A stretch of DNA of 64,000 nt from Candidatus Poribacteria bacterium (GCA_965200205.1 CBDAUI010000002.1:1449472-1513471); one strand, 5' to 3'. Counted from the stretch's first letter, positions 67 to 36,194 are shown. Notes: generated by a model from the letters alone, not told the origin. Numbers and translations: made by a program.

Positions 67-519
67 TTGATGCGCAGATTTCTAATACGTATCAAAAACA
101 TATCATTTATAGGGCCATACTCTATGAAACGTCACCAGATTGCAGGTATTTTTGCGGGGATATGTGCGATAGGTTTTGCAATACACAATGCCCTCTCAGG
201 AGATATTATTGAGGCACTCATATACTTCACTGCGTTATCTGTTATGGCCATTTCAAGCTTTTTTAGGGACAGATTCTCAATGAATATTGTCGGTATTTCC
301 ATTGGGATATGTGCGATAGGTTTTGCAATACCCAGTGCCCTCTCAGGAGATATCATTGAGGCACTCATATACTTCACTGCGTTATCTGCTATGGCCATTT
401 CAAGCCTTTTTAAGGACAAATTTTCACCGAGATGGTCTCAGTGGACATTACCGTTTTGGATGTGTGTTGTTTTAATTTGTATCTTCTTGTTTGAGTTCGT
501 TTTTGCTTTTCTTGTTTGA
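67..519 (+). CDS. small hydrophobic (membrane) protein containing an internal 49-aa tandem duplication
   Basis: 150-aa ORF; two nearly identical 49-aa segments (GICAIGFAI..SGDIIEALIYFTALS.MAISS); hydrophobic throughout; no recognisable family. Confidence 0.4.
   Translation: MMRRFLIRIKNISFIGPYSMKRHQIAGIFAGICAIGFAIHNALSGDIIEALIYFTALSVMAISSFFRDRFSMNIVGISIGICAIGFAIPSALSGDIIEALIYFTALSAMAISSLFKDKFSPRWSQWTLPFWMCVVLICIFLFEFVFAFLV
124..417. repeat. 147-bp tandem duplication (2 copies, ~95% identical) inside the 67..519 ORF
   Basis: tatgtgcgat at 161 and again at 308; near-identical DNA over ~140 nt in each unit. Confidence 0.8.
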
Positions 520-2675: not shown

Positions 2676-4055
2676 TCACTCGCCTTCGGCAGCTTCGCCA
2701 GTTCGCGGTATCTCCTTTTCCAAGATCGCCATCGCGGTCATTCGCAAGAGTATACTTTTAGAACCAACAGCATACCATTTCCCATCTGTGAATGTCGTGA
2801 CGGCGTAATCTCTTTCGTCAGCATCCGAGACTTCAGAAAAGAAATCATCGGGTAACCAGTTTTCATAAGTGCGGAGTTCGCCGTTATCCCATTGCCATTG
2901 TCCCTCATTTTCAGCATCGCTAAGTCCTATCCAATAGAACTCATGTCCAAAAACCGCTGAGAGCCACGCCTGCTCCTCAGCGTCGTTAATCGTGACGAGA
3001 TGCGCTTTTTCGGCTGTCGCTTGGGCAACAGCAACGTCGCGAGACTCACACGGAATCTTTTTATAGGCGTGCCCATTTGCAGGGTTCACTATCCAAACCG
3101 CGTTAAATGCTGGAACTGATAGCGGTTTGGGTGCCGGTGGCGTACCGGACGGATTGAATGGCATTCTCGGAGGTGACGGTTTGGGCGCAATCGGTTCACT
3201 ATCAAAAGTGAAAGTGAGTCCATCAAGTCGATCCCCCGGCTTAAGCAGCATAGGTCCCGCCGTCGCCTCAAGCTCTTGGTACGCCACCGAAAATGTGTAG
3301 TTTGCAGGGTCATCTTTCTCGTCTAAATAAAAGAGAAAGTAGCCATCAGCATCTGTGCGGGGATTTCCGCCTGAACTTCCATGGCCCTGCCCATCTGCAT
3401 GAGTGTAATTGAAACCGAGGCGGAGCCGCGCGTTGCGGAGCGGTGTCCCGTCTGTAAAGAGGACGCGTCCCCGAATCCGCATCCGAGGTTGCACAATAAC
3501 TTTCACGTTTTTAATATCGGATCCCGGTTCAACGCTAAACCCAATCCGACTAAAGTCATTACGCGGATAGAAGGTTATACCGCGGATGTCAATAGATAAA
3601 ACCTCAAAGTCGGGTTCAAAATCGTCCGTTTCCATCTCTGTAACGCCACTCGTGTATACCGCAGCGAAATCCTTCTCTTCTATAGCCTTCGCAATTTTTG
3701 TCTCAAGATCCTTTGGAAACAGTGCATCCACATTACGAGGGAGTGCGCTAAAGCAGGACATCCCTGCAGCAATACCTGTAATGGCAAACCGTCCCTCTGC
3801 ATCTGTGCGTGCGCGTCGCGTAGTTGGATAACTCATTGGCGAAAAAGCGGGGTGAATTCCGGGTCCGATAGCCATCGTGGGGCCAATCATAACGGGTAAC
3901 TCGGCGACTGGATTCCCTTCTACATCGACAACGCGTCCAGAGAAAGTTCCTGTCTCCACTTCCGCAGCAATACTACGCGAACCTAAACCGATGAAAAGCA
4001 AAACAACTAATATCAACAAAAACAAACCTTTTGTGTAGGATGAACGTTTCATCAT
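2676..4055 (-). CDS. secreted protein: signal peptide + carboxypeptidase-regulatory-like beta-sandwich domains + C-terminal C-type-lectin-like domain (paralog A)
   Basis: N-terminal hydrophobic signal; GRVVD..G.PV motifs; C-terminal WIGLSD..EGQWQWDNG motif typical of CTLD; 28 bp downstream of ECF-fusion gene (operon). Confidence 0.6.
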   Translation of the reverse strand: MMKRSSYTKGLFLLILVVLLFIGLGSRSIAAEVETGTFSGRVVDVEGNPVAELPVMIGPTMAIGPGIHPAFSPMSYPTTRRARTDAEGRFAITGIAAGMSCFSALPRNVDALFPKDLETKIAKAIEEKDFAAVYTSGVTEMETDDFEPDFEVLSIDIRGITFYPRNDFSRIGFSVEPGSDIKNVKVIVQPRMRIRGRVLFTDGTPLRNARLRLGFNYTHADGQGHGSSGGNPRTDADGYFLFYLDEKDDPANYTFSVAYQELEATAGPMLLKPGDRLDGLTFTFDSEPIAPKPSPPRMPFNPSGTPPAPKPLSVPAFNAVWIVNPANGHAYKKIPCESRDVAVAQATAEKAHLVTINDAEEQAWLSAVFGHEFYWIGLSDAENEGQWQWDNGELRTYENWLPDDFFSEVSDADERDYAVTTFTDGKWYAVGSKSILLRMTAMAILEKEIPRTGEAAEGE

Positions 4056-4083
4056 TTTTCTCCTTTTGCGTCGGACGTAAAAC

Positions 4084-6120
4084 TTACTGCTTCACCGGCA
4101 AATTTTCTTTCTCAATCAGTGCTGTCCGGATTAGGGATATTCCGCCATGTCCGAGGCCAAAGTCCTCCCATTTCCCTGAAGGACCTAAAATAACATAATC
4201 CTCTTCTCCGAGACTGGTATCATCCGGTTCTTGCAGTCCCCAATTTGTGTAGGTTACCGGTTCACCGTTGTCCCAGATCCATTGTCCCTCTTGTGCAATG
4301 TCGTTAAGACCAATCCAACTCGGTTGACCGCCAAAAACGGCTTGCAACCACTTCTGTTCCGCTTCGTCGTTGATGGTAACAAGATACCCACCTTCGGCAG
4401 CAGCCTGCGCTTGAGCATCCTCCCAATCCGCACACTGAATCCTTTTGTAAGCGTGACCATTTTCTGGACGGACTACCCATACGTCTTGTAGGCTACCACT
4501 CGCTACCGGGCGGGAACCGCTTGTTGAGGCTGACGTACTCGCAAAATTCCCTTGTCGCGGACGGAAAGCTGAGGCTGGCATATCGTCAAACGTGAAAACA
4601 ACCTCGTGCGTTTGATCTCCGGGTCTAAGGATAATGGGTTTTACGTTTACTGTTTGTCCTTGATATGTAACAGACAGCATGTAAACTGTTGGTCCCTCTA
4701 AATCCCTCCCCGCATAGTACGTAAAATACCCTTCGGTATCTGTATGAGCACTCCCGTCGCTGGAGGAATTTCCGTATAAACTCACTGTTCGCAAGCGGCG
4801 TTTGACTTGTGTATTGACGATGGGTGTTCCATCTATGCGCTGTACCCTCCCGCGGATGTGTGGTTGTTGTACTGTAACTTGAATGTTTTCAATGTGTCTC
4901 CCCGGGCTCGTGGCAAAGACAACGCCGCGTTCCATCATCCCGCTTGGGTAGAGAGACAGTCCTTCAATTTGAACGTCTAAAATGCGCACCGCAGATTGAC
5001 CGAATGGAAATAGTGATAATAACACAGGCCCATCAATCGCAGTGGTGATGCTGAAATGCCCTTCTGCATCACTTTCCGCTTGAGATGACGCGGAGTTGCG
5101 TTCTCGAATTGGGAACCAAGCCCCATTGCCATCTACAACAGGTGTAACGGCTATCTTGATCCCAGATATCGGTTCACCTCTTTCATCAAGAATACGACCA
5201 GAGGCAGATGGAAATAACTTTACATCAGGTTTCTGATTCGGACCCTCGTTCCTACCCGTTGCATCGCGCCGACCAAATTGGTTCTGCACATCCGGTTTTG
5301 ACTCAAGGTTCAGTACAACAGGTGCCTCAATCAACTCAACCGTCATTTCCGACGCTGCATCGAAACTGTACGGTTTCTGGAAACGCGATAGGTATTGATT
5401 ACTGGCACCTAACATTATAAATACCAGTGCTACTGTAGAAGCAGCGATCACCCACGGCACTAATGGTTTACTGCTGCCGGGGACAGCAGGTTTCAAATGT
5501 GAGATCTCCCGCATGATGTGCTCCGTGAACCCCGGTGTGATTTGATAATTGTCTAAAACCTCTCGAATCATCGGCTCCTCCTTCTTTAAACGCTGTTGTG
5601 CACGACGGAGGCGACTCCTAATCGTATTTTCCGATACACCTAAAAACGCACCAATCTCTACACTGGACATCTCACCGAAGTAATGTAGTGTGATGACGGT
5701 ACGTTCACTCTCTTGGAGTTTCGCAAGCAACTTTTTGACGGCTTCGCGTCGGGTTTCTACGGCTGCCTGTTCGTTCTCTTCAATGACATATCCCGAGTAC
5801 GTCGCCTTTTCTAACTGCACACCGCTCGTCTCTTCAAGGGACTGTGTCCGTAGACGCTTTTTACGCAGCCACGTGCTACAGTGATTCGCGGCAATCACAT
5901 AAAGCCAACTCGCAAAACTCTGCGGTTTTTTCAGCGTTGCCAACCCCTGATATGCCTTTAGGAATGTATCCTGTGTAATCTCCTCGGCGATGTGGAAATC
6001 TCCAATCTTACGCCACACAAGCGCGTGAACCGGCTTTTGGTACTTTTTCACAAGTTCACTGAAAGCAGTATCATCACCATCAAGGACACGATGGATAAGT
6101 TCAACATCAATATTTTTCAT
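4084..6120 (-). CDS. ECF sigma-70 factor fused to transmembrane anti-sigma-like segment and extracytoplasmic carboxypeptidase-regulatory-like + C-type-lectin-like domains (paralog B)
   Basis: N-terminal sigma-70 region 2 (FSELVKKYQKPVHALVWRKIGDFHIAEEITQDTF) and region 4 HTH (MSSVEIGAFLGVSENTIRSRLRRAQQRL); TM helix VIAASTVALVFIMLGA; C-terminal WIGLND..EGQWIWDNG; GGAGGTG RBS. Confidence 0.75.
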   Translation of the reverse strand: MKNIDVELIHRVLDGDDTAFSELVKKYQKPVHALVWRKIGDFHIAEEITQDTFLKAYQGLATLKKPQSFASWLYVIAANHCSTWLRKKRLRTQSLEETSGVQLEKATYSGYVIEENEQAAVETRREAVKKLLAKLQESERTVITLHYFGEMSSVEIGAFLGVSENTIRSRLRRAQQRLKKEEPMIREVLDNYQITPGFTEHIMREISHLKPAVPGSSKPLVPWVIAASTVALVFIMLGASNQYLSRFQKPYSFDAASEMTVELIEAPVVLNLESKPDVQNQFGRRDATGRNEGPNQKPDVKLFPSASGRILDERGEPISGIKIAVTPVVDGNGAWFPIRERNSASSQAESDAEGHFSITTAIDGPVLLSLFPFGQSAVRILDVQIEGLSLYPSGMMERGVVFATSPGRHIENIQVTVQQPHIRGRVQRIDGTPIVNTQVKRRLRTVSLYGNSSSDGSAHTDTEGYFTYYAGRDLEGPTVYMLSVTYQGQTVNVKPIILRPGDQTHEVVFTFDDMPASAFRPRQGNFASTSASTSGSRPVASGSLQDVWVVRPENGHAYKRIQCADWEDAQAQAAAEGGYLVTINDEAEQKWLQAVFGGQPSWIGLNDIAQEGQWIWDNGEPVTYTNWGLQEPDDTSLGEEDYVILGPSGKWEDFGLGHGGISLIRTALIEKENLPVKQ

Positions 6121-6279
6121 AAATCACCTCCGATTACCCTATAGTGACGCTTGTTAAGGGTAAAATCGGTGCATAATCAGAAAAAAAGAGGGCGTTTATA
6201 TATTTACTCAGATGTGCCAACGACGAAGTTTTCTTTTCTGTAGTGTGTCAAAAACGTTAGGAAGATTGATAAAGCGCAC

Positions 6280-7794
6280 CTACTCTTCATCAGGTACTTC
6301 CACAGCAAGTGCCTTGGAAACCAATCCATCCTTTTCGATGATTGCCTCTCGCGTGGCTCGCCAGAAATGGCTTTTGGGACCGATAGACTGCCATTCACCA
6401 TCTCTAAAAGTAATCACAACGTAATCTTTTTCGGTCTCTGGTTGTCCGTCAGGGAAAATCGGTTGGGTTGCCCAATTGGTATAGGTAACAGGTTCACCGC
6501 TATCCCATTGCCATTCTCCCTCTTTTTCCACGTCGGTAAGTCCGATCCATGAGGAATGGGACCTAAAAATGACCTGAAGCCAGTGCTGCTCCTCTTCATC
6601 GTTAATAGAGACGAGATGTGCATCTTCCTCAATCGCCTGTCGTTGTCCATCGTGCCAATCCTGACACTGAATTTTTTTGTAAGCATGCCCATTTGTCGGG
6701 TTAATGACCCACACGCTCTTCGGGGGTTTTGGGGGCTGCGGTGGTACAACCGCGCGAGCGACGACTTTAGGTTGGATTTCAACCTGTTCAACAACAATAT
6801 TGTCAGCACCAGCAGGGACTCTACCCTGTTCAATCGGAGCATCGACACCAGTTTTCTGATCGGTGGGTCGTTCGACGTTAGGTGGATTGCCGTCAAGCCT
6901 TAAAATCAGATTCTCTGGTGCCACGCCACCTTTGAGTAAAAAAGGACCTGCCCCTGCAGAGAGACCGTTATGTTGAAAAGAGAGCGTGTAATACCCCGGT
7001 TCATCTCTGTACACCGTAAAATGACCATCAACATCCGAAAAAAAGGACACCGATTCGTTCGATGTATGGTTCGGAAGGTTCGCCTCATTCTGCCATCTCG
7101 CTCTAATCCGTCCTTGGGTGTTGGTGAGGGGTGTACCGTCAGCGTAAAGAATCCGCCCATGAATCTGCATCCGAGACTTGACTGTAATTTTGACGTTTTT
7201 AAGCACTACACCGGGCTTCAACGCGAACGTAAGTCCATCCAAAAAAGCAGGGCCACGTATCTCGGTATGATTAAAAAAGGTGATTTTTCCGACCTGAATG
7301 GAGAGAATCCGCTTATCCGGCTCAAGCGTCCAAAGTCTCATCAATTCGGGCGGGACCTCGCCTTGACGTATTCTTTCCGGGCCAATTTTCTCAAATGCAT
7401 CCAATAGAACACTCGGGACCACGTTTAATTGGACGAGTCCGGGCTGGATATTGGCGGCAGTGAAAGTTCCATCTGAATCGGTTTCTACTCTGACACTCGC
7501 ACGCGGCATTCCTCGTCCGTCCATGCCTTCGGGCAGTTGTTGGAAAGGGTTTAGGAACATACCGTGAGGCTGTAGATGCCCCTCGCGGAGCTGCATGGGT
7601 TGAATAGTGAACATGAATCCGGCAATAGCGTTTCCTTCAGGGTCAATAACTTCGCCTGATATTCCACTCGGTGGTTCTAAAGGCACCTGCGCCGCGACAA
7701 CCCCCGTTACGGTAAATAAAACTGTTAGCATTAACACTGCAAATGTTTGTGTCGTGTAGGGACGACGCATCTCTATATCTCCTTTTATTTTCAT
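6280..7794 (-). CDS. secreted carboxypeptidase-regulatory-like + C-type-lectin-like protein (paralog C)
   Basis: signal peptide FAVLMLTVLFTVTGVVAAQ; C-terminal VWVINPTNGHAYKKIQC..WIGLTD..EGEWQWDSG; start may be internal Met (~7770). Confidence 0.6.
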   Translation of the reverse strand: MKIKGDIEMRRPYTTQTFAVLMLTVLFTVTGVVAAQVPLEPPSGISGEVIDPEGNAIAGFMFTIQPMQLREGHLQPHGMFLNPFQQLPEGMDGRGMPRASVRVETDSDGTFTAANIQPGLVQLNVVPSVLLDAFEKIGPERIRQGEVPPELMRLWTLEPDKRILSIQVGKITFFNHTEIRGPAFLDGLTFALKPGVVLKNVKITVKSRMQIHGRILYADGTPLTNTQGRIRARWQNEANLPNHTSNESVSFFSDVDGHFTVYRDEPGYYTLSFQHNGLSAGAGPFLLKGGVAPENLILRLDGNPPNVERPTDQKTGVDAPIEQGRVPAGADNIVVEQVEIQPKVVARAVVPPQPPKPPKSVWVINPTNGHAYKKIQCQDWHDGQRQAIEEDAHLVSINDEEEQHWLQVIFRSHSSWIGLTDVEKEGEWQWDSGEPVTYTNWATQPIFPDGQPETEKDYVVITFRDGEWQSIGPKSHFWRATREAIIEKDGLVSKALAVEVPDEE

Positions 7795-7856
7795 TAGGAC
7801 TTACGCATGCGGATCTTTTGTAGCACAAACTTCCCAGTTTGTGACTGTTGATACGT

Positions 7857-9164
7857 TCAAGGCTTTTCGACATCACCCTCTGGTTCAGGGGCACCAATGA
7901 TGAAGTTCTCTTTTTCGAGAATCGCTCGCTCTGTCATGCGTACCAGCGGGCTGCCGGGACGCGCCACCTGCCATTTTCCTGTCGTTCCAACGAGGACAAT
8001 GTATTTTTTTGCGTTCGCATCGCTGCCTTGATCGGATTTTAATATCTCAGCAGCCGCCTGTGGCAACATCCAGTTTGTATAGGTCACGGATTCACCATTA
8101 TCCCACTGCTGTTCCCCTGCCTCTGAACCGTTGACCAATCCAATCCAAAAGTGTTCTTCTTTTCCAAAAACTTCACGGAGCCATTCCTGTTCTGCTTCGT
8201 CGTTGATAGCAACGAGATGCGCGCCTTGCGCAGCCGCTCGTTTCTGTGCCTCCTCACGCGTTTCACAACGGATCATTTTGTAGGCGTGTCTATTGTCAGG
8301 ATTGATTGCCCACATACCTTCGCGTTCACGCTTCCGCACCGCTTCAAAGCGTGCTGGGTCGTGGACCTGAGGCGGTCGCACCACGATTCTCTCCGGTCTG
8401 GGGGCCGGCGGTCTATCTGCAAAGGTTAAAACGAGTCCATCAAGCCGCTGCCCATCTTCAAGCAAAATCTCTTCGGATTCTGCAAACTGCCCTTGATAAC
8501 TAACAGTGACAGTGTAGTAAGCAGCTTCGTTGACATATTCCACAAAGTAGCCATCCTCGTCAAGCATCGCTGAGCCACTGCTGCTCCCTCTGCCTCTACC
8601 CTCTACGTCGCGCCGTCTTACACCCAGCTGAACCCTTATGTTACGAAGGGGAGTGCCATCCGCGGAAAGAACGCGCCCGCGAATACGCATCCGAAGCCGG
8701 ACGGTTATCTCCACGTTTTCAATATCCGCCTCTGGTGCAATAGAAAAATTAAGACCGCCAAAAAAGTGCTGGCGTTGATCTAAGTAGACCGATATTCCCT
8801 CAATTTCGACAGAGAGCATTTCATAATCTGAATTGTGTTCAGGGAACAGCGTTAATCGACTCACCGAAGGTGTAGCGATGTTCCGAATCGAAAACGCACC
8901 TGTTGCGTCCGTCTCGCTGGGTGGTGCGGGTGGAAACATACCTTCAAACCATTCGGGCAACTCAACTTGCATCCGTTGGTGTCGGGCTGGTGGTGTATTT
9001 CCCGGAAATGACGGGAGGGCGACAATGAGACCTGCAACAGGTTGTCCGTCCTCGTCAACAACTCTACCTGAAAAATTTGCCGCTATGCTCGGCAAAGAAG
9101 TCGCAAACAAAAGTGCTATACTCGCGGCGAAAACGACAACGGATGCCACGTCCGATCGTTTCAT
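7857..9164 (-). CDS. secreted carboxypeptidase-regulatory-like + C-type-lectin-like protein (paralog D)
   Basis: start at MKRSDV with AAAGGAG RBS; signal peptide; FSGRVVDEDGQPVAGL; C-terminal WIGLVNGSEAGEQQWDNG. Confidence 0.6.
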   Translation of the reverse strand: MKRSDVASVVVFAASIALLFATSLPSIAANFSGRVVDEDGQPVAGLIVALPSFPGNTPPARHQRMQVELPEWFEGMFPPAPPSETDATGAFSIRNIATPSVSRLTLFPEHNSDYEMLSVEIEGISVYLDQRQHFFGGLNFSIAPEADIENVEITVRLRMRIRGRVLSADGTPLRNIRVQLGVRRRDVEGRGRGSSSGSAMLDEDGYFVEYVNEAAYYTVTVSYQGQFAESEEILLEDGQRLDGLVLTFADRPPAPRPERIVVRPPQVHDPARFEAVRKREREGMWAINPDNRHAYKMIRCETREEAQKRAAAQGAHLVAINDEAEQEWLREVFGKEEHFWIGLVNGSEAGEQQWDNGESVTYTNWMLPQAAAEILKSDQGSDANAKKYIVLVGTTGKWQVARPGSPLVRMTERAILEKENFIIGAPEPEGDVEKP

Positions 9165-9380
9165 AGTGAACGTCTCCTTTTGTGGGTGTTTGAGGTGAAA
9201 GGTTGAATGGATCAGATATAATTGCAACTATAACGAATTGTAACATTTGTGTTCGCTATCGTCAATATTAATCATTTATTGCGTCAAGGTCATTCAATTG
9301 TCCGTTTTTCGTGTTGTCCTTTTCGCAGGTGTTAACACTTAATATATGTTATGCTTTTAAGAAAATCGCAGAAAAATTCG

Positions 9381-9405
9381 CTAGATTTCGCTAGATTTCG
9401 CAGCA
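9381..9405. repeat. tandem 11-bp direct repeat (ttcgctagatt x2) in divergent promoter region
   Basis: cgctagatttcgctagatttcgcag seen directly. Confidence 0.6.
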
Positions 9406-9592
9406 TTTCACACCGGATCCTGAAAAAAGATGTCCAATCCAATAATTTCTTAAAATTGAATGATCCTGTTCATTGTGTTTAATTGTATTGACAAAATTCA
9501 GGACGAATGGTAACATAACGTCCAAAGTTCACGAAAACCTATCCTGAATTGCAGGCTGTTGCCTGTAAACCGTGTTACCTTGGGGAATCTGC

Positions 9593-10696
9593 ATGAAGAT
9601 AACAAAATTAGAAACATTTCTGGTGAAACCGCGCTGGCTCTTCCTTAAAATCCATACAGATGAAGGACTTGTAGGACTCGGTGAACCCATTTTAGAGGGA
9701 CGTGCGAAAACGTGCGCGCAAGCCGTTGATGAACTCGCCCCCTATCTCATCGGTGAAGATCCGAGACGTGTTGTCCACCACTGGCAGGCGATGTATCGCC
9801 ACGCATTCTATCGCGGGGGTCCCATCCTGACAAGCGCACTCAGCGGCGTAGAGCAGGCACTCTGGGACCTCGCTGGGAAATCGCTCGGTGTCCCTGTCTA
9901 CCAACTCTTCGGCGGACCGACGCGCGACCGCATCAGACTCTACAAAGGTGGCGGTGACCCAGACGGAATCAAAGAGTGGATTGACAAAGGGTTTACCGCT
10001 TTCAAGACAGGTGTCGCTGGCGGCAGACCCGCACGTATCATCGAAAATAAAGCCTTCATCGATAGAGCCGTGGATCACTTCGCAGCACTCCGTGAAGCCG
10101 CGGGTCCCGAAGTTGACTTAGCCATCGATTTTCACGGTGCAGTCAGTCCACAGACCGCAAAGGTACTGATTAAAGCGTTGGAACCCTACCAACCGATGTT
10201 CGTTGAGGAACCGATCCAGTGCCAAAATGTTGATACACTCGCTGAAATCGCACGAAGCACACATCTCCCGATCGCAACAGGTGAACGGATTTTCACGAAG
10301 TGGGGGTTCCGTGAAATTTTGGAGAAACAGGCAGCGTCTGTCCTCCAACCTGACCTCTGCCACGCCGGGGGCATCAATGAAGTCCGCATTATCGCAGGTA
10401 TGGCAGAAGCCTATTACGGGGGTATCGCCCCACACAATCCGCTCGGCCCCATCTCTTTAGCAGCATGTATCCAATTAGATGCCTCTATCCCGAACTTTGT
10501 AATGCAAGAGCATACAACACTCGGCGAAGGCTATCTCAAGAATCCCTTCGTCTTCAAAGACGGTTTCGTTGAACTACCGACCGGTCCCGGACTCGGTATC
10601 GAACTCGATGAGGACGCACTCGAAGATAAGATTGACCACGATTGGCAGAATCCAAGGTCCTATCACCCCGACGACGGCTCCGTTGTTGATTGGTAA
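9593..10696 (+). CDS. dgoD: enolase-superfamily sugar-acid dehydratase, D-galactonate dehydratase-like
   Basis: MKITKLETFLVKPRWLFLKIHTDEGLVGLGEP..RAKT...YRGGPIL..ALWDLAGK closely mirrors the DgoD/mandelate-racemase N-terminus and metal-binding D/E/D pattern. Confidence 0.8.
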   Translation: MKITKLETFLVKPRWLFLKIHTDEGLVGLGEPILEGRAKTCAQAVDELAPYLIGEDPRRVVHHWQAMYRHAFYRGGPILTSALSGVEQALWDLAGKSLGVPVYQLFGGPTRDRIRLYKGGGDPDGIKEWIDKGFTAFKTGVAGGRPARIIENKAFIDRAVDHFAALREAAGPEVDLAIDFHGAVSPQTAKVLIKALEPYQPMFVEEPIQCQNVDTLAEIARSTHLPIATGERIFTKWGFREILEKQAASVLQPDLCHAGGINEVRIIAGMAEAYYGGIAPHNPLGPISLAACIQLDASIPNFVMQEHTTLGEGYLKNPFVFKDGFVELPTGPGLGIELDEDALEDKIDHDWQNPRSYHPDDGSVVDW

Positions 10697-11606: not shown

Positions 11607-12419
11607 ATGCCGCAATTTCAGTTAGGCTTAAATACCAGCACAATACGTCCCGCTGGGTTAATGGATAAAATTAGGATCGCTGCCGAAACCGGTTATTCAG
11701 CGATTGAATTATGGAACGACGATTTAACGGCTCACGAGGAACAAGGCGGATCGCTCGCTGATGTCAAAAAAGCACTTGACGACCACGGGCTTTCAGTCCC
11801 CACCGTCATTGCGCTGCACGGTTGGCTCAACACGGCAGGCACGGAACATCAGGAAGCCATTGAAGAAGCAAAACGACGGATGGCGCAAGCCGCCGCTGTC
11901 GGTGCAACCTACATTATCTCAAGTCCGCCGCGCGACGTGGCAGACCTCCAATTAGGCGGCAAGAACTATCGCGAACTTCTCGAACTCGGACGTGAATTCG
12001 GCGTTAAACCCGCCATGGAATTCCTCGGTTTCGTGGATGGTGTTAATCAAGTCAAACATGCGTGGGAAGTGATGGAGGTCGCAGATCATCCCGATAGTAC
12101 AATTGTCCTCGATCCGTTCCATATCTATCGCGGCGGTGGCGAAATAGAAGATATGGAAGGCATCCCCGGCGAGAAGATCGCAGTCTTCCACTTCAACGAC
12201 GCACCTGCCGAACCCGCACGTGCAGAACAATCGGATGCAGACAGAGTGTACCCCGGTGATGGCATTCTTGACCTCGGACGGATGATCACTATTCTAAAAG
12301 ACGCAGGATATGAAGGTGTCATCTCGTTAGAACTGTTCAACCCGAACTATTGGGCGCAAGACCCCACAGAAGTCGCACGCATCGGCTTGGAAAAGATGCA
12401 AGCTATCCTAGACAACTAG
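11607..12419 (+). CDS. sugar phosphate isomerase/epimerase (xylose isomerase-like TIM barrel), second copy
   Basis: GLNTSTIRP..GYSAIELW N-terminus typical of AP-endonuclease-2/xylose-isomerase-like TIM-barrel family. Confidence 0.65.
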   Translation: MPQFQLGLNTSTIRPAGLMDKIRIAAETGYSAIELWNDDLTAHEEQGGSLADVKKALDDHGLSVPTVIALHGWLNTAGTEHQEAIEEAKRRMAQAAAVGATYIISSPPRDVADLQLGGKNYRELLELGREFGVKPAMEFLGFVDGVNQVKHAWEVMEVADHPDSTIVLDPFHIYRGGGEIEDMEGIPGEKIAVFHFNDAPAEPARAEQSDADRVYPGDGILDLGRMITILKDAGYEGVISLELFNPNYWAQDPTEVARIGLEKMQAILDN

Positions 12420-12442
12420 AAAAGGTAATAAGGAGGTAACAA

Positions 12443-14296
12443 TTGCAGGACGGGCAGAAAACAATTAAAACTTTATTTGATAGTAGTACAATTTTCAATA
12501 TCCCCAAATATCAACGTGCTTATGCATGGGAAGAAGAACAACTTGATGCTTTTATTGAGGATATGGAAAATCAGGATTCCGACAAAGATCACTTCTTTGG
12601 TACAATTTTGCTTCAGAAACAAGAACCAGAAGGGGAATTTAACATAATAGACATTGTTGATGGCCAACAGCGGATTACAACGATTATTATCTTTATGAAA
12701 CTACTTTTGGCACAACATGAAAATATGGGGAACAATGTTAGAAGGCTAAGGCGTACTTATATTAAGGATGATGTATATAAACTCCGCGTTTTGGACATTG
12801 ATAACGACTTTTTTGAATCTTATATCTTGGAGGATAACGGGTCTGGCGATAATGAGGTGGAAACACCATCCCAACGCCGATTGCTCAAAGCTAAGGAATA
12901 CCTTGCTGAATGGATAGAAACACATCTTAATAGGGTCAAGGAATTCATAGATAAAATTGGAAACATGAAGGTTTTAACTTATTCAGTGGAGGATGATTCC
13001 GAGGCGGCTCTAATTTTTGAGACAACCAACAACCGAGGCAAATCACTGACTAGCTTGGAGAAAGTCAAAAGTTTCTTGATGCACAAGACCTACCTTGCAT
13101 CGAATAGTTCTGAAATTGCCGAAATTGGATTGAAAAGGCTCCAAAATCGATTCAGTAAGATTTACCGAGTTTACGAGGAAATTGAAGATTTTGGAAAAAC
13201 TAAAGGTGAATTCAGCAAGACTGATGAAGATTCGATTTTGCAGTACCACTCCATTGCTTTTGAAAACTGGAAAGGCAAGGAATACCAAGATTCCGTTCGG
13301 ATGGTTAACCAACAGATAAACGGTCTAATTAAAGCAAATAGAACCGCAGATGCAGCAGAGTTCATCAACAAGTACAGTCGGGAATTAAGGGAGAGTTTCA
13401 AAATTATGAACAAGTTGCTTCTGAGTCGTGACTCTTATCTCCTTGACATATTTGCTCTCAATCGCCCAGCGGCGTTTTATCCTCTTCTAATCACAGCTTA
13501 CAAACGCGACAAGTCAAATGGGAAACAGGATTTTGAAAAGGTTGCGCAATTAGTAGAAATTATATGTTTCCGGTTCGGTATTATTGGTGCCCGATCAGAT
13601 AAAGGCGTTAGTCAACTGTATGGACTGGCGAAGGATTTCAATTTCTTCAAGTGGAATTTCAATCGACTTATCCGCGCTCTTCAAGACTTTATTACAGATT
13701 ACTGCGGCGATTTTGTTTTCAAACATGCTCTTCAATCACCTTCCTTTTATTCTGATGTGAATTCAAACGATCAGCGATATCTCTTTTGGAAGTATGAGAA
13801 TTATCTCAGAGATATGGATGGTTACTCCGAGATGTCCTACGACGAATTTACCAATGACAACTCGCGGTCAAAATTCTCAATGGAACACATCATTCCGCAA
13901 AACCCTAAGGAGAGCAAGATTGTTGAAGATGATTCAATCCTATCAACCACCGATTTTGAATCTCCAGAATTTAAGGAGAACTATCTCCATAGTATCGGAA
14001 ATTTGACGATTGATCCAGTCTCAGCGAATGCCAGCAAATCGAATCAGAACTTTGAATATAAAGATCAAAAGTATTTCCGCAGAGCACCGCTCATGGCACA
14101 AAACGAATTGATCGATTTCCAGAACGATGAAACAGGAAAATGGGATAAAGTCTCTATTTCAGATAGAGCACGGCAGATTCGTTCTTTTGCTTTGGAACGC
14201 TGGAATTGTCAGAAACCAGGGCAGAAATCCTCGGAAATCGCTAAGATTATGCCTCTCACGATAGCTTTTGAGGAGGCGATGGAGGAAGGGTTGTAA
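12443..14296 (+). CDS. GmrSD-like type IV restriction/defence nuclease (DUF262 ParB-like N-domain + DUF1524 His-Me/HNH-like C-domain)
   Basis: N-terminal IPKYQRAYAWEEEQ and DGQQRITT motifs (DUF262); C-terminal SMEHIIPQNP ... GNLT motifs (DUF1524); TTG start after AAGGAGG RBS; AT-rich relative to flanks. Confidence 0.8.
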   Translation: MQDGQKTIKTLFDSSTIFNIPKYQRAYAWEEEQLDAFIEDMENQDSDKDHFFGTILLQKQEPEGEFNIIDIVDGQQRITTIIIFMKLLLAQHENMGNNVRRLRRTYIKDDVYKLRVLDIDNDFFESYILEDNGSGDNEVETPSQRRLLKAKEYLAEWIETHLNRVKEFIDKIGNMKVLTYSVEDDSEAALIFETTNNRGKSLTSLEKVKSFLMHKTYLASNSSEIAEIGLKRLQNRFSKIYRVYEEIEDFGKTKGEFSKTDEDSILQYHSIAFENWKGKEYQDSVRMVNQQINGLIKANRTADAAEFINKYSRELRESFKIMNKLLLSRDSYLLDIFALNRPAAFYPLLITAYKRDKSNGKQDFEKVAQLVEIICFRFGIIGARSDKGVSQLYGLAKDFNFFKWNFNRLIRALQDFITDYCGDFVFKHALQSPSFYSDVNSNDQRYLFWKYENYLRDMDGYSEMSYDEFTNDNSRSKFSMEHIIPQNPKESKIVEDDSILSTTDFESPEFKENYLHSIGNLTIDPVSANASKSNQNFEYKDQKYFRRAPLMAQNELIDFQNDETGKWDKVSISDRARQIRSFALERWNCQKPGQKSSEIAKIMPLTIAFEEAMEEGL

Positions 14297-14446
14297 AAGA
14301 TTTTACGTACAGAGGAATCTGTCCAATAGTAAGGTCCTTTTAAAAACAACTGAATATCTGAACAAAAGCATATGTCTGTTGTTTTTTGCGTTTATGTGTT
14401 ATAATAGGTAGTAAGTTGAGTTAGTAATAATTAAAGGAGATGTGAA

Positions 14447-14686
14447 ATGCCTATAGAGACAAGTGAACGTCTGACACTAAATGAAATGATAGAGAAGTAT
14501 CCTGATCAGTGGCTGTTTATTGTTGATCCTGAAATCAGTAGTGACACTTCAGAACTTATATCAGGCATAGTTACTGCCCGTAGCGATTTAAGGGATGATG
14601 TTTATCGTGAACTGAGCACCCTTAAAGGGGGTGCCGTTATACGTTATACTGGGGAGATTCCAAAAGGGAGATTGTGCCTGCTATAA
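14447..14686 (+). CDS. small hypothetical protein translationally coupled to downstream aspartic protease gene
   Basis: 79 aa, GGAG RBS, TAATG stop/start overlap with next gene; AT-rich island. Confidence 0.4.
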   Translation: MPIETSERLTLNEMIEKYPDQWLFIVDPEISSDTSELISGIVTARSDLRDDVYRELSTLKGGAVIRYTGEIPKGRLCLL

Positions 14687-15117
14687 TGCCTCAGACACGT
14701 TTCGAGTTAAGCCCTGACAGATTAATTATGGTCCAAGCTACAATACATGCATTGGACTATAGCAAGCATGTTACTGTAGATTTAATATTAGATACTGGTG
14801 CCTCGTTTACGACTATTAATCCAGATATTTTATCAGATTTAGGATACGACCTTTCAGATCCAAATTTGCATAGGATCGATTTTATCACAGCCAGTGGTAC
14901 TACCAAGGCTGAAATTATTGCAATAAGCAGATTATCGGTAATTGGTCATACTTTTGAACAAATGGAAGTTGCAGCTAGCTATTTGCCTGTCGAGACTTAT
15001 GCACACGGATTATTAGGAGCAAATTTCTTATCTTGTTTCGATATAGGTATTAGTTATTCTAAACATATCATTAATACCGAGCCAATTCCATCTACGATTT
15101 TTAGTTTTACACCGTAG
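14686..15117 (+). CDS. retropepsin-like (clan AA, DTGA-type) aspartic protease
   Basis: LILDTGASFTTINPD motif (Asp-Thr-Gly-Ala catalytic signature); size ~143 aa matches single-domain retropepsin-like proteins. Confidence 0.55.
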   Translation: MPQTRFELSPDRLIMVQATIHALDYSKHVTVDLILDTGASFTTINPDILSDLGYDLSDPNLHRIDFITASGTTKAEIIAISRLSVIGHTFEQMEVAASYLPVETYAHGLLGANFLSCFDIGISYSKHIINTEPIPSTIFSFTP

Positions 15118-15342
15118 GCAATTAGGATTGCGTGCAAGTTCAGTTTTCATGGGGTCGTTCATTTTCTTGCGTGTTTCGCCCATCGGTCGAACCCATAGGA
15201 AAGACAGCCCTCTGATGGAGTACTGTCTTTTGTAAGGGCGTTTCCCGTCCCGCTCAAAATTGTCCAAAGCGTAGTATAATAATGCAGAAATTATGTATAT
15301 TTTCACTCTTGAGACTGAGCAATTTTAAAAGGAAAAGTTTGA

Positions 15343-16476
15343 ATGACTTATATTGACGGATTATTGTCATCGTTGACGCGTGTTAAAAAGGCGCGTTCGT
15401 TACGTGCGTCTTCATGGGACACGACAGGAAGAAATAACGATGCATGGAACATCGCTCCGGGTGAAACGCGTGTTCTTGCAGATATTCAAGGTCCGGGATG
15501 TATCAATCATATCTGGATGACACAACCGAATGGTTACCGAAACGTCTTGATCCGAATGTTTTGGGATGACGAGGAACATCCGAGCGTTCTCTGTCCACTG
15601 GGCGACTTCTTCGGTCTCGGAAACGAGATTGTTAACTCTTACGATTCCATACTCTTTTCAGCATCCACGCACCAAAACAATACGTTTAATTCAGGCTGCG
15701 CGCTCAATTGCTATTTGCAGATGCCGTTTAATCGCAGCGCAAGAATTGAACTCGTCAACGAAGGCGATACGACCCATCGTCAATATTTCTACATCGATTA
15801 TGAACTATATCCCGAACCGCACGGTGAGGATATTGCCTATTTTCACGCGCAATTCCATCGTGAAAACCCGTGTGATGGATGGGGACACGAAATCACTGTA
15901 AATACCCCCGAAGCCGATATCGTCAATGCAGAACGGCTCGCTTGGGACAACAATTACCTAATCCTGTCCGCTGAAGGCAGAGGGCACTATATCGGTTGTA
16001 ACCTATCGGTCACCAATTTTCAAGGTACATGGTGGGGTGAAGGCGATGATATGATCTGGATAGACGGTTATAAATGGCCCCCCGATTTGCACGGCACAGG
16101 TTCAGAGGATTACCTCAACCAAGCCTGGGGCATGCAACAGAACACTTTTGCACATAACGGTTCCGCTATCCACGAAAGCAATACCGAGGGTTACCAGAGC
16201 TCTTATGTCTATCACATCGAAAACCCGATCCGTTTTGAAAAGGAGATTCGGGTTACAATTGAACACGGACACGGCAACCATCTTAGCAATGAAACATCTT
16301 CCGTGGCGTACTGGTACCAAATTGAACCGCACGCGCCCTTCGGGATTTTACCGGTCGCACAACGCACGCCGGTATTAAGAGACGAATCCGGCGCATGGCC
16401 CGCACTGCCCCCTTCAACGGAACCTGTGCTCAACGATGAAATGAAAAAGATGAAACAGAAATGGAGCCAGTTGTAA
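15343..16476 (+). CDS. hypothetical protein, possibly DUF2961/GH172-like beta-sandwich glycosidase family (tentative)
   Basis: 377-aa ORF with good coding statistics; family assignment from memory of DUF2961-type proteins only, unverified. Confidence 0.3.
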   Translation: MTYIDGLLSSLTRVKKARSLRASSWDTTGRNNDAWNIAPGETRVLADIQGPGCINHIWMTQPNGYRNVLIRMFWDDEEHPSVLCPLGDFFGLGNEIVNSYDSILFSASTHQNNTFNSGCALNCYLQMPFNRSARIELVNEGDTTHRQYFYIDYELYPEPHGEDIAYFHAQFHRENPCDGWGHEITVNTPEADIVNAERLAWDNNYLILSAEGRGHYIGCNLSVTNFQGTWWGEGDDMIWIDGYKWPPDLHGTGSEDYLNQAWGMQQNTFAHNGSAIHESNTEGYQSSYVYHIENPIRFEKEIRVTIEHGHGNHLSNETSSVAYWYQIEPHAPFGILPVAQRTPVLRDESGAWPALPPSTEPVLNDEMKKMKQKWSQL

Positions 16477-16595: not shown

Positions 16596-19500
16596 ATGTT
16601 CACCGGTTTTCAACAAGTTTTAGCTGCATGCATCGCGAAAACAGAGGAAAATACAGATCAACCCGACGATGCACAGCACGACGACGAATCCCAAGCGGAA
16701 TTAGAAATCGCAACCGATAATAATTCCGTAGATAATACTGAACAGACAGACACCCCGGCTCCAGAGCAGAACGGAACCGAAGAGGGTGATGAAGTGTCGC
16801 CCGTATCGGAGGATGATACCTCATCTGATCCTGTAGACGAGAGTACGGAGACACACGCCGACGATGATCCGGTCGTCGTGGATGAAGACGCTGAGTCACA
16901 TGATAACGATGTTTCTAATAAGTCAGATGTAGAAGAAGCAGCTGGTGACGAGGTTTCTAACACAGCACCTCCAGATGCTGACGACGAACCTGATGAATCA
17001 TTAGCAGACGCTGATTCGGTCACAGAGGACGATACAACGTCAGAGCCTGCGGACGCTTCGCCTGAAAAGGAAACCGAAGACACTGCAGATGACAGTCCAC
17101 AGGTTGCCGACAACGAAACAATAGAAACGGAAGCACAAGAATCAGATGAAATAGACAAAGACGAAGATACCCAAACCGTACCCGTACCCGAACCTGATCC
17201 TCCAGCATTGGAACTCGGTATTGTTGAAGAGATTTATGATTTTGTGGAGATGTTTGACCAAAGCACCGTTTCGGGTACAGAACAAGCATCCGCAAATGGA
17301 ACGGATTGTGCAGGCGGCGTTACCAAACCTGCAATCTTTGAACATCCAATCCCAACAGAAACCGCAAAGATTGATTATACCGTCTCACTCCCCGATACTG
17401 ATGACCAAGAACGGCTCTGTTTACACTTTTTCATCGGTTTGCGCGACGGTGTCGTATTTGACGACGAGACGCGACAACCCGGCGGTGTGAAGTTCGCTAT
17501 CGAAATTTTCGACCTACACAATAATGTAGACTTGGAAGCCCCCCCAAATAGATGTTTTGAATCGACAGCTACAGAGTGTTGTTGGACAGAACATGGGATT
17601 GACCTGACAGCCTACGCTGGCAAAGAGATCGTCATATCTTTTTTGACGGAATGCAATGTAGCCGGTAACAGTAACTACGCATGGGCATTGTGGGGCAAAC
17701 CAGCGTTAGGGAAATTCAGACAGACACGCCTCCGAAAAGCGAGACGAGACCCAGAACCGGAAATCCGTTGTGGTGTGGCACTTCTACACTTCAGTGATGA
17801 AAAGACCGAGTTCATTGCGTTTAACGTGCCGACATCAACTGCGGTCTCCGAACTGACAAGTATTTGTCTTGAATCCTCGAAATCCGAAAAGTCGCCAGTC
17901 AAAATAGGACTATATACGGCAGTTCCTAAATTAGAAATTGTGAACATAGGTGCGACAACAGCCATTGTTGCTGCCGGTGAAGACTTTGAGGTTCAATGTA
18001 CTGTCCGGAATGTCGGTACAGCACCGCTCGGACGGTCAGATGATGCCCGGGTTTCTATTAACGGTGTGAAATTACGACGCGGACGCCCGCGACAGAGTAT
18101 TAAAGGGCTCGAACCGGGTGAAGAGTCCTCTATCTCTTGGGTAGCGCGCCGCTTTTCACAGCCGACGCTAACAACAGTCGGTGTTTCACTGAAATGTCTC
18201 ACCTCAGCCGGTGAAGATCGGAAAACGGTACAAGGACACATTGAGATCCGACCAACACCCCCTAAACTCAACGCCAAAGTTGTGAAAGAACTTTACACCT
18301 ACACAGCGGAAGACGGTAGCGTTGTGATGGGAAACAAAAATCTTCGGATCGTTTTTGTTCGTGCTATTGATGCACCCGCTAAAGCTAACAACGCCTCACC
18401 GGCCGACAGCGGTTTCGCTTATTATCTATTATTTGTCGCGAAGGGGGGCAACTATCAACAAGTTGCATCCTGTCCTGCGCTCTCTGAGGTTACTTATTTA
18501 GATGCTGCCCAGAACCGTCAAACAACCCGACTTGCCCCCACAGACTATCAACTTGCGGGAAACAGTCGCGGCGAATCTATCGTTCGATTTAGCGGCGCAC
18601 ATACCGATACCGACGGTGTGAAATGGAACTATGAGATGCAGTGGACACTCGCTGAAGATGCAACGCGAGTACAAACAGAATCTCATCTGCAAACCGATGG
18701 CGATAGAGAACTCCTCGCTTTCCGCGGTCCCATGCTTTACGCTGGACAAGGACGAAATCAAGAGAAGAAAACGGCAGCACTCTTTCCCGGACTCGAATTT
18801 TTAGAGAGCGACGAGATTTCTTCAAGCCCGCGCGATGCAGCACCACCCCTCAACAACCGCCTTGTACCGCATCCCTATAAAATTACGGTGCCAGTAATGG
18901 CAGTTGAGATGCAGAAATCGGTTGTCGGTATTATCTGGAATCCGCTTGACACTTGGGACAGCGAAAACCGGACGCTCTCAGCGATATTCGCCTCACCGAA
19001 TTGGCATCAATATCAGAAAAATCATGCCCTCGGTGTATTCCTACCCACTATACCCGAATGGGTTCAGGAAAATCACACAGAGGCATCTATCCCGTACCCG
19101 CTGATTTCATCACGTCCGCTCTCTATCAAAGCCGAAATTATTGTTGATGGCAGAGCCTCAATTGTAGATGCTGTGAAGCATTGGACAGATGCCTACGGCA
19201 CACCCGAACCGCTCCAACCACCGCGCAGCGACGAGGAAGAGGTACTGCTTTCACGGCACGGATTCATGCATACAACATGGGACGAAAATACCGGTAAATC
19301 GCAGCACTGTGTGGATTGGGCTGCGCACAATGAACCCGGTTTTGGCACACTTCTCTGGTACGATTACCTTGCTACAAAAGATGCACAAGTTAAGGAACGG
19401 GTGCAGGAAATTGTGAAAAATACTGTAGCCGACACCGGAGTGGAAGGTTTAGCTGCCCGCGGCTCCTGCCATATCTTACGATGGGAGTTCCCATTCTATG

Positions 19501-34435: not shown

Positions 34436-35473
34436 ATGGATTGGACTGTTTTTGGCTGGGCGGGAATACAACTTGAAATCCCTACGACATGGGAACTGAG
34501 TGGTCTCAGTGGTGATCAGAAGACGGGGTATCTCCGGCTTGATGACGGTGAGATGCCGCGCCTCGAACTCAAATGGGCACCTACCCGAAAGAAAAAACCG
34601 GATCTCCACTCAACGCTTGACGAATACTTCAAGTTGATTCGCAAAACCTATAAAAGAGGCACCGACCTCTCCTTCCGCCGGAATGTTGACCTGATCAAAG
34701 ACGCTGCGTTTTTTGAGGGACGCACCGTGCTCGGTTTTAGCTGGAAGGGGAGTATCCGTGCCAACGGGTTGATCTTCCACGCAGGAAAACGGATTACAAT
34801 CGTACAGGTGATGGGACGCCTTAAAGAGAACTGGAGACCGACAGTACTACGGGTCTTTCAATCTATTATAGACCGCAGTGATGACCCGCTGACATTGTGG
34901 AGTGCCTACGGTCTGAAGTTGGGCGTACCAAAAGAATATAAATTGGAACGTCAGAAACTTCTCAGCGGCTACCTGCTGTTCGCGTTCGGCGCGAAACCGT
35001 CACGCTTTCAGATACCGATAAAAATAGCGAAATTGGCAGCGCACCGTCTACGAAAAACTGACGGTCCTCTGGGAAAAATAGACTTCTCACCACCCGACAG
35101 AGGACGCCTGAGCGTCGAGCGATACGGTCCAGCTGAAGTCATGCTCGGTGACTATAAAGACACACAGAATCCACTGGAGGCATGGTTTCGCGTCAAATAC
35201 GCAAAAGCGATTCGCGGATACGGGTTTGAGGTGTCAACTGACACAGAGACAGAAGATGAACGCCTGACACTTATCGGAGAACAGACACGCCTCTATGACA
35301 GTGTTCCCTTCAGCCCAGTGCTGATGTTCGATAAACTATCCAAGCGGACGGCACTTGTGTTCCATCTCTGGCATTGTCATCATTCCAATCGTATCTATGT
35401 CATCCAGTCTATCGGTAGTAACAACGCGCACCCGACAGTCGAAAAAGTCGCTAACAGTATTGAATGCCATTAA
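34436..35473 (+). CDS. hypothetical soluble protein (345 aa)
   Basis: continuous ORF in the operon; no recognisable motifs. Confidence 0.5.
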   Translation: MDWTVFGWAGIQLEIPTTWELSGLSGDQKTGYLRLDDGEMPRLELKWAPTRKKKPDLHSTLDEYFKLIRKTYKRGTDLSFRRNVDLIKDAAFFEGRTVLGFSWKGSIRANGLIFHAGKRITIVQVMGRLKENWRPTVLRVFQSIIDRSDDPLTLWSAYGLKLGVPKEYKLERQKLLSGYLLFAFGAKPSRFQIPIKIAKLAAHRLRKTDGPLGKIDFSPPDRGRLSVERYGPAEVMLGDYKDTQNPLEAWFRVKYAKAIRGYGFEVSTDTETEDERLTLIGEQTRLYDSVPFSPVLMFDKLSKRTALVFHLWHCHHSNRIYVIQSIGSNNAHPTVEKVANSIECH

Positions 35474-36133: not shown

Positions 36134-36150
36134 TATAGCATTTACGCAAC

Positions 36151-36176
36151 CCCCCTGCAGGCGGGGTTTATTGACG
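36151..36176. repeat. REP-like element, partial (CCCCCCTGCAGGCGGGGTTTATT)
   Basis: shares CTGCAGGCGGGGTTT core with other copies. Confidence 0.4.
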
Positions 36177-36194
36177 ATCAGCAAGGAGAAAAAA

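Follow-up and report, generated by a model that had tools for sequence, protein, structure and literature searches.

A Poribacteria gene array encodes a predicted membrane-tethered ECF sigma factor with a C-type lectin-like ectodomain

In a 64,000-nucleotide stretch of a Candidatus Poribacteria bacterium assembly (GCA_965200205.1, CBDAUI010000002.1:1449472-1513471; hereafter the window), four consecutive minus-strand genes, which we call A to D, encode paralogous proteins with beta-sandwich domains and a C-terminal C-type lectin-like domain (CTLD). Gene B (4084..6120) encodes a 678-residue fusion in which this ectodomain is preceded by an extracytoplasmic function (ECF) sigma factor, a linker, a transmembrane (TM) helix and a juxtamembrane segment. 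Its neighbours are secreted paralogs: gene A (2676..4055), identified by its open reading frame (ORF), Pfam matches and hydrophobicity, lies 28 nucleotides downstream of B, and genes C (6280..7770) and D (7857..9164), the latter with a signal peptide, two beta-sandwiches and a CTLD, lie upstream. Mechanical ORFs extend C to 7794 and D to a TTG codon at 9227. An AAAGGAG sequence precedes the second ATG of C at 7770 (MRRPYTTQ...) and the ATG of D at 9164, which aligns with the start of the D ortholog in a related locus (L001), and these two ATG codons are the likely starts. Of the span of 2676-9227 first given to the array, the genes themselves were found in place, and the upper end is only the limit of the mechanical ORF.

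Hidden Markov model searches bore out the domain content proposed in a first-pass annotation of the sequence (Sigma70_r2/r4, CarboxypepD_reg and Lectin_C). Lectin_C scored above its gathering threshold in all four proteins (39.8-51.4 bits against a cutoff of 22.6 bits; E values of 8.5e-10 to 2e-13), and CarboxypepD_reg exceeded its cutoff in A, C and D and fell slightly below it in B (31.8 versus 32.3 bits). A hydrophobicity scan returned exactly one TM-like segment in B, at residues 220-240, and one N-terminal signal-like segment each in A, C and D; AXA-type sites that follow the latter segments can be read directly from the sequence (SIAA/EV, VVAA/QV and SIAA/NF). The paralogs are collinear across the whole ectodomain and pairwise 30-39% identical (BLASTP E values of 1e-55 to 1e-82). 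Of the two motifs said to be shared by all four, WIGL is indeed invariant, whereas EGxWxWDxGE is kept in A, B and C and is degenerate in D (AGEQQWDNGE).

At the DNA level, the best repeats between the paralogs are just 66-72% identical, and A to D are old duplicates. Gene conversion among them, which had been raised as a possibility, left no sign: DNA identity does not exceed 72% and there are no long near-identical tracts. We also considered that the array might be the target of a diversity-generating retroelement, as such elements use the CTLD fold, and rejected this because the paralogs differ throughout and not in one variable region; no reverse transcriptase was found among the window ORFs of at least 200 residues that were scanned.

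Sigma70 domains occur in B alone among the four paralogs. Residues 1-182 (5575..6120, minus strand, as are all features of B) comprise sigma-2 and sigma-4, with Pfam scores of 50.0 bits for Sigma70_r2 (cutoff 24), 47.9 for r4_2 (25.7) and 35.9 for Sigma70_ECF (21.1), and no Pfam matches to the r1 or r3 sigma regions. B also passes the NCBIfam ECF superfamily model TIGR02937 (94.6 versus 42.9 bits), and scores 81.4 bits with TIGR02989, the Rhodopirellula/Verrucomicrobium family, below the cutoff of 124.55. The closest solved structure to the sigma part is SigW (5wuq, E = 1.9e-24), and the core-binding and helix-turn-helix residues of sigma-2 and sigma-4 are invariant. By these profile matches, the sigma part of B is assigned to the ECF (group 4) sigma-70 family. 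It is followed by a short cytoplasmic linker of residues 183-219 (5464..5574; EEPMIRE..ITPGFTEHIMREI..KP), the single TM helix of residues 220-240 (5401..5463; Kyte-Doolittle peak 2.26), at which P219, P222, W223 and G238 are invariant in orthologs, and a periplasmic juxtamembrane segment of residues 241-280 (5281..5400; QYLSRFQKPYSFDAASEMTVELIEAPVVLNLESKPDV). A complete ECF sigma factor, one TM helix and an ectodomain are therefore encoded in a single gene, as Pfam, TIGR02937 and the hydrophobicity scan agree.

The anti-sigma part that had been read into this fusion did not find support. Just 37 cytoplasmic residues separate sigma-4 from the TM helix, and they hold no Cys/His motif of the zinc-associated anti-sigma (ZAS) zinc-finger kind. 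Neither B nor 19 family segments gave a Pfam match to zf-HC2, RskA, FecR or another anti-sigma model, with no FecR match in B even at E ≤ 1, and a profile of residues 178-300, which span linker, TM helix and juxtamembrane segment, retrieved no anti-sigma factor from all Protein Data Bank (PDB) sequences. An anti-sigma domain is thus not detectable in B by sequence comparison, and 'anti-sigma segment' is an interpretation rather than an observation.

The ectodomain consists of two CarboxypepD_reg/prealbumin-like beta-sandwich 'stalk' domains at residues 307-515 (4576..5202; Pfam and AlphaFold2), a Pro/Ser-rich spacer and the CTLD at residues 546-672 (4105..4485; Lectin_C, E = 2.1e-13). The AlphaFold2 model of the ectodomain is confident for the two beta-sandwiches only (predicted local distance difference test score (pLDDT) of about 70-89), and Foldseek matched it to generic pilin and adhesin stalk domains with TM-scores of about 0.2. 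Searched against the PDB, a profile of the B-type ectodomain retrieved PLA2R (1.7e-55, several repeats), collectin placenta-1 (1.2e-18) and CD23.

Whether this ectodomain binds carbohydrate, as was first suggested, is less clear from its residues. Where a canonical CTLD has four cysteines, the four paralogs share a single invariant cysteine column (C336 in A numbering), so the canonical disulfide cysteines are missing. The predicted Ca2+/sugar site of B reads EPxD..ED..WED instead of EPN..E..WND, and is acidic and non-canonical. Its residues are well kept among 30 B orthologs: P632 and W651 are present in all 30, D634 and E640 in 28, E631, D641 and D653 in 27, and E652 in 20. A, C and D of the window are without these acidic residues, which only the B lineage retains. 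Lectin activity is possible for B only.

Orthologs were sought in a 5.8-billion-protein collection and in a genome scan that used one genome per species; the latter gave 371 related stretches, and 77 loci, to which the L numbers refer, were fetched. A protein identical to B is on record as a cluster representative (P0001), although an exact look-up of the protein in a contig index gave no match, and 73 clusters contain full-length fused proteins with the same Pfam architecture (44-89% identity, 99-100% coverage), so that the joining of sigma factor, TM helix and lectin-like ectodomain in one polypeptide, as originally called, holds well beyond the window. All fused relatives that bear a name are Candidatus Poribacteria. 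The loci that we kept come nearly all from Poribacteria, as metagenome-assembled genomes (MAGs), complete chromosomes and one single-cell genome; the rest are labelled 'uncultured bacterium'.

At orthologous loci, the lectin array has a constant position between an enolase-superfamily gene (9572-10696 in the window) and pyrB (1586-2665), and the number of lectin paralogs there ranges from 3 to about 12. Where the sigma-fused copy is present, it was always followed by an A ortholog (57-91% identity) in the loci compared. The B-type ectodomain also exists in about 30 free, sigma-less clusters. In one genome (L015:7902-9149, OZ244821.1), the fusion is replaced by a secreted 415-residue protein that has a signal peptide of its own and shares 71% identity with the B ectodomain. 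In a neighbour-joining tree of the B-type ectodomain (no bootstrap support), the deep branches are all fused and the free forms fall in one shallow subclade, which suggests that they arose by secondary loss of the sigma module.

The N-terminal module of B is shared far more widely than its ectodomain. In the 77 loci, 180 genes begin with the same module, most of them encoding proteins of 900-1100 residues; copy numbers of 8-13 for several genomes come from the fetched loci alone and are thus lower bounds. In comparisons of B with 139 paralogs whose ectodomains are of other kinds, identity is 79% for sigma-2, 77% for sigma-4, 62% for the linker, 55% for the TM helix and once more 79% for the juxtamembrane residues 241-275, before it drops to 36% (276-300) and 13% (301-330). 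The ectodomains fall into BNR/Sortilin-Vps10 propellers (55 genes), WD40 (54), the lectin type (14), Big_5-containing proteins (12) and a short type (8), with further classes of CarboxypepD_reg repeats and transglutaminase-like domains. Elsewhere in the family, sigma-module genes are followed by a further family gene in 20 cases, by an A-type lectin gene in 11 and by a gene for another secreted protein in 42.

When residues 178-300 were searched against 1.84 billion representative proteins, only 256 clusters were returned. Their proteins are 400-1377 residues long and nearly all have the module at residues ~178-299; those that bear a name come from Candidatus Poribacteria. At about 280 residues, the sigma-linker-TM-juxtamembrane module thus marks a family known so far only from Poribacteria. 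After the TM helix, its members share the consensus QYLxRFQKPYSxDA..E..VELI.AP.VLN, which B matches and which is common to the whole family. Whichever ectodomain follows, this segment equals the sigma domains in conservation, which makes it the obvious candidate for a shared site-1 cleavage or docking element.

A search for an ECF-type promoter upstream of both 6120 and 9164 had been proposed, and the two positions gave opposite results. Upstream of B, at 6137..6181 (minus strand), lies a 45-nucleotide element, TCTGATTATGCACCGATTTTACCCTTAACAAGCGTCACTATAGGG, whose core GATTATGCACC-GATTTTACCCTTAACA-AGCGTCACTATAGGG comprises the -35 hexamer TGCACC, 16 nucleotides and AGCGTCA, followed by a GGAGG Shine-Dalgarno sequence. 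In an alignment of the upstream regions of 13 orthologs and the window, about 60 nucleotides up to the ATG are almost invariant, whereas the region further upstream diverges. The same element precedes most family paralogs. A position weight matrix (PWM) built from 65 distinct sites found 6137-6181 as the sole site in the 64-kb window (minus strand, score 53.9) and none in 20 shuffles; information content was about 1.8-2 bits per motif position compared with about 0-0.4 bits in the 24 nucleotides upstream. Across the 77 loci, 88 of 104 PWM matches fall within 150 nucleotides upstream of a family gene. Upstream of D, by contrast, the PWM detected no family-type ECF motif in the window, and just a sigma-70-like consensus match was seen (9237..9265, minus strand; TTGACG-17-TACAAT).

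The -35 hexamer varies with the sigma-4 recognition helix by subfamily. TGCACC occurs with NT(I/V)RSRLRRAQQ, the subfamily that includes B; TGAGAC with IKNRLYRAR; TGTGAC with IKTR(V/I)YRAR; TGAAAC with IKSRLHRAR; and TGAGAT with IRNRLYRAR. Such covariation is what self-recognized promoters would predict, and we consider 6137-6181 to be the predicted cognate, autoregulated ECF-type promoter of B.

Variants of the element also occur elsewhere. A second copy of the B promoter stands at the head of the array, right after the enolase-superfamily gene, in four loci (L001:2296-2385, L003:774-818, L008:2110-2154 and L012:2141-2185); the copy in L001 runs on into the sigma gene and stops after its first ~10 codons (ATGAAAAATATTGATGTTGAACTTAT...). 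The extra copy is a recombination scar, and in those genomes it may bring the entire array under control of the ECF promoter. The window does not have it; there, a tandem repeat (cgaaatctag x2.4, 9377-9400) lies upstream of D at the place where relatives carry the copy. A variant family promoter (TAGGCAAC...GCGTCACTATAT) precedes genes for sigma-less secreted PD40/TolB-like beta-propeller and LamG-like proteins (L052:4605-4649; L066:1834-1878 and 4661-4705; L068:2332-2376 and 3271-3315; L057:3222-3266), which are likely to be regulon members of the family.

The spacing of the genes bears on how the array is transcribed. The 28-nucleotide gap between B and A contains a Shine-Dalgarno sequence (AAGGAG) and has no space for a terminator; the 159-nucleotide gap between C and B contains the ECF-type promoter; and the 86-nucleotide gap between D and C contains a short hairpin. 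The simplest reading of this layout would be two units, with the ECF promoter driving B-A and a different promoter driving D-C, and with read-through from D-C into B-A possible. Co-transcription of A with B, already part of the first-pass annotation, is almost certain given the gap and the order of B before A, which is kept at every orthologous locus. Because B has its own family promoter in front of it and is separated from A by only this gap, the pair looks like an autoregulated operon with A as the probable co-transcribed output gene.

On balance, we favour the view that B is a one-polypeptide transmembrane sensor whose sigma factor is set free by regulated proteolysis and then switches on the B-A operon that encodes it; we regard this as probable, with the inactivity of the tethered form, its proteolytic release and the nature of the ligand all proposed by analogy with studied systems. 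The cytoplasmic ECF sigma factor would be tethered by the 37-residue linker and the single TM helix, and so be kept from productive use. Once the ectodomain perceives a signal, the periplasmic part would be trimmed at site 1, which probably lies in or close to the conserved juxtamembrane segment, and an RseP-type protease would then cleave within the membrane (site 2). The freed sigma domain would guide RNA polymerase to the promoter of its own gene at 6137-6181 (-35 TGCACC, -10 GCGTCA), up-regulating the B-A operon, that is, both B itself and the secreted lectin-like protein A. D and C would be older paralogs of the same secreted family, read here from a separate, non-ECF promoter.

Several observations weigh against this proposal. 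No anti-sigma domain is detectable that would keep the tethered form inactive, and the AlphaFold2 model of full-length B is uninformative on contacts between sigma factor and linker (pLDDT 50). There is no RseP, Prc or DegS gene within the 64-kb window. The CTLD part of the ectodomain model is of low confidence, and ligand binding by the CTLD is a prediction. The free 415-residue forms that replace the fusion in some genomes, such as L015, imply that the ectodomain works without the sigma factor. As for the promoter, about a third of the family genes in the loci lack the motif when it is searched as a regular expression, and co-inheritance of a gene with its upstream region after duplication may account for part of the -35/sigma-4 covariation.

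Two other accounts keep the sigma factor functional but control it differently. In one, the linker (residues 183-219, with the helix FTEHIMREI) would itself be a minimal built-in anti-sigma element that folds onto sigma-2 and sigma-4 in the manner of short class II anti-sigma factors and is removed by signal-dependent cleavage or a conformational change, in which case the term 'anti-sigma segment' would be literally true. The linker is as conserved across paralogs as noted above, with EEPMIRE and IMRE near-invariant; it is helical in the low-confidence AlphaFold2 model; and the conserved Met184 directly after sigma-4 could mark a former anti-sigma start, as library proteins exist that begin there ('MIRE'). 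Those proteins, however, resemble truncated gene calls, the loci contain short sigma ORFs as genes broken by frameshifts or stops and not as clean sigma/anti-sigma pairs, the profile of the segment matches no anti-sigma factor in Pfam or the PDB, and the model is too uncertain to show packing; we therefore judge this account unlikely. Somewhat harder still to credit is that the sigma factor works while tethered to the membrane, as ToxR and CadC do, with ligand binding or oligomerization altering the recruitment of RNA polymerase and no proteolysis involved. In favour of this, B has no anti-sigma domain that would have to be taken away, the locus has no linked protease gene, and the conserved linker and juxtamembrane segment could pass on conformational signals. 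Against it, 37 residues make a short tether if the sigma factor has to be buried in the RNA polymerase holoenzyme, IutY as the sole experimentally studied sigma-TM hybrid requires cleavage by RseP (PMC5411451), and the ECF reviews consulted mention no membrane-active sigma factor (PMC8999054).

The remaining two accounts deny the sigma domain a function or the gene its integrity. B could be a membrane-anchored lectin or adhesin akin to A, C and D, with a vestigial sigma domain serving as a mere signal anchor; the free secreted form at the same locus position in L015 would fit, as would the variation from 3 to about 12 paralogs, which is common in surface and adhesin families. But no part of the protein is better conserved than sigma-2 and sigma-4 (77-79% identity between paralogs, with invariant core-binding and helix-turn-helix residues), the domain passes the ECF model cutoff, and a conserved, co-varying ECF-type promoter accompanies it. 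A vestige would not be kept with such conservation and such a promoter, and we hold this account to be very improbable. An assembly error or frameshift that joined a sigma gene to a lectin gene can draw on a few long-read assemblies with interrupted or truncated B copies (L009, L011 and L016). It is effectively refuted, and we give it practically no weight, because the fusion is uninterrupted in many independent assemblies: in the identical protein P0001, and in the 73 independent clusters from MAGs, a single-cell genome and complete chromosomes, with a reading frame that continues through the conserved linker, TM helix and juxtamembrane segment.

Beyond the release of sigma from B, a wider and distinctly speculative picture can be drawn, which we think rather unlikely to hold as a whole. 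Poribacteria would run at least ten one-polypeptide transmembrane sigma sensors per genome, built in plug-and-play fashion by pasting a constant cassette before secreted proteins. The cassette of sigma factor, linker, TM helix and 40-residue periplasmic segment would carry the docking or cleavage site for a common activating machinery, and would turn pre-existing secreted proteins into sensors of their own ligands, while the co-divergence of sigma-4 and -35 would insulate the subfamilies from each other. The lectin version would sense a glycan of the host sponge or of particles and respond by secreting more lectin. If true, this would be a host-sensing circuit of a sponge symbiont made from a 'eukaryote-like' domain.

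Within ECF signalling, no branch is less well understood than the membrane-tethered sigma factors that have a built-in sensor, and the Poribacteria family offers a natural experiment in which one sigma/TM/juxtamembrane cassette is joined to many ectodomains and comes with a readable -35/sigma-4 promoter code. In its lectin member, free secreted paralogs of the sensor domain are encoded next door. The family could be used to study how ligand binding on the outside is converted into sigma release, might supply orthogonal sigma/promoter pairs for synthetic biology, and may give hints on what an uncultivated sponge symbiont senses in its host. It also matters for annotation, as its genes are now labelled just 'sigma-70 family RNA polymerase sigma factor' or 'hypothetical protein'.

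Outside this region, the content of the window is typical of Poribacteria. A GmrSD-type restriction endonuclease gene (12443-14296, plus strand; GmrSD_N 1.2e-36, GmrSD_C 4.9e-17) adjoins the conserved locus in a low-GC stretch at ~12000-15500, with a drop in GC content from about 51% to about 39%, and was probably acquired horizontally as a defence gene. A giant ORF of 2441 residues (24168-31493, plus strand) combines LysM, Peptidase_M28 and a C-terminal FtsX-like permease domain, which is unusual, and an ABC ATPase gene lies downstream of it at 36111-37007. Two adjacent minus-strand genes encode Reeler plus dockerin (47758-48891) and cohesin plus Spondin_N plus FlgD_ig domains (49011-51683), a possible cohesin-dockerin pair built with 'eukaryote-like' domains. 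The window further encodes a free Sortilin-Vps10/BNR protein (58666-59628, plus strand), the domain type of the largest ectodomain class in the sigma family, a Laminin_G_3 protein (40147-40989, minus strand) and a eukaryotic-type carbonic anhydrase (56394-57116, plus strand). A small hydrophobic ORF at 67-519 (plus strand) contains an internal duplication, with …GICAIGFAI.NALSGDIIEALIYFTALS.MAISS.F… occurring twice. Four plus-strand ORFs have no Pfam match at E ≤ 1e-5: 16596-20660 (1354 residues), 31861-33849 (662), 34436-35473 (345) and 62010-63269 (419). Scans of the window returned no Rfam families and no tRNA genes.

A sigma factor, TM helix and sensor within one protein is a known kind of arrangement, as IutY, SCO4117 and Planctomycete ECF sigma factors illustrate. 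The first-pass annotation held that such fusions are known mainly from Planctomycetes, which does not agree with the description of IutY and of the actinobacterial ECF48, ECF52 and ECF53 groups (PMC8999054, PMC5411451). IutY of Pseudomonas putida (ECF243) is a sigma-TM-periplasmic hybrid that is activated by Prc (site 1) and RseP (site 2) and is constitutively active when truncated (PMC5411451); the ECF reviews consulted describe only IutY as characterized for proteolytic activation, with SCO4117 partly studied (PMC8999054). B resembles IutY in having the sigma factor, one TM helix and a periplasmic domain in one polypeptide without a separate anti-sigma gene. It differs in that the periplasmic FecR-type domain of IutY is signalled by a neighbouring TonB-dependent receptor, whereas B has neither and is flanked by lectin paralogs, pyrB and an enolase-superfamily gene. 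B also has a beta-sandwich stalk with a CTLD, comes from another phylum and belongs to a multi-copy, modular family.

In the actinobacterial ECF48, ECF52 and ECF53 groups, the sigma factor is fused C-terminally to TM helices and an extracytoplasmic region, and proteolytic activation has been proposed; SCO4117 (ECF52, Streptomyces coelicolor) has a carbohydrate-binding ectodomain (PMC8999054). The sigma-TM-extracytoplasmic order is the same in B, which also has its Pro/Ser-rich spacer before the CTLD. Those groups, however, carry a ZAS anti-sigma domain between sigma factor and TM helix where B has 37 residues and none, and the carbohydrate-binding domains of SCO4117 are of another type than the CTLD of B. 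The Planctomycete ECF01-Gob group apparently expanded by duplication and insertion, with highly similar sigma-2 and sigma-4 parts becoming joined to large, unrelated C-terminal extensions (PMC7671368). The Poribacteria family is likewise a lineage-specific expansion of similar sigma parts with unrelated extensions, many of its members having WD40 propellers, but its conserved unit also takes in the TM helix and the 40-residue periplasmic segment, and neither a CTLD ectodomain nor a shared, co-varying promoter is mentioned in that literature. Among the publications searched, we found none that links Poribacteria with these sigma factors or reports an ECF-CTLD fusion, a conserved juxtamembrane segment, a shared promoter with a co-varying -35 element, or a sensor that lies in one array with free paralogs of its ectodomain.

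The individual parts of B also have counterparts elsewhere. Its sigma domain is nearest, among solved structures, to SigW of Bacillus subtilis. SigW promoters have the shape TGAAAC-N16-CGTA, which the B element, TGCACC-N16-AGCGTCA, resembles. SigW and RsiW are separate proteins, however, and RsiW has a full zinc-binding anti-sigma domain, whereas in B the sigma factor is itself a membrane protein. The CTLD is clearly homologous to those of animals (the mannose receptor family, collectins and CD23), with which it shares the WIGL and W.W.DG..Y.NW core, but it has one conserved cysteine in place of four, and B has EPxD and WED where animal domains have the EPN/QPD and WND motifs, which A, C and D have lost. 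The overall shape of the ectodomain is also familiar from bacterial adhesins: intimin and invasin carry a CTLD at the tip of a beta-sandwich stalk, as B does.

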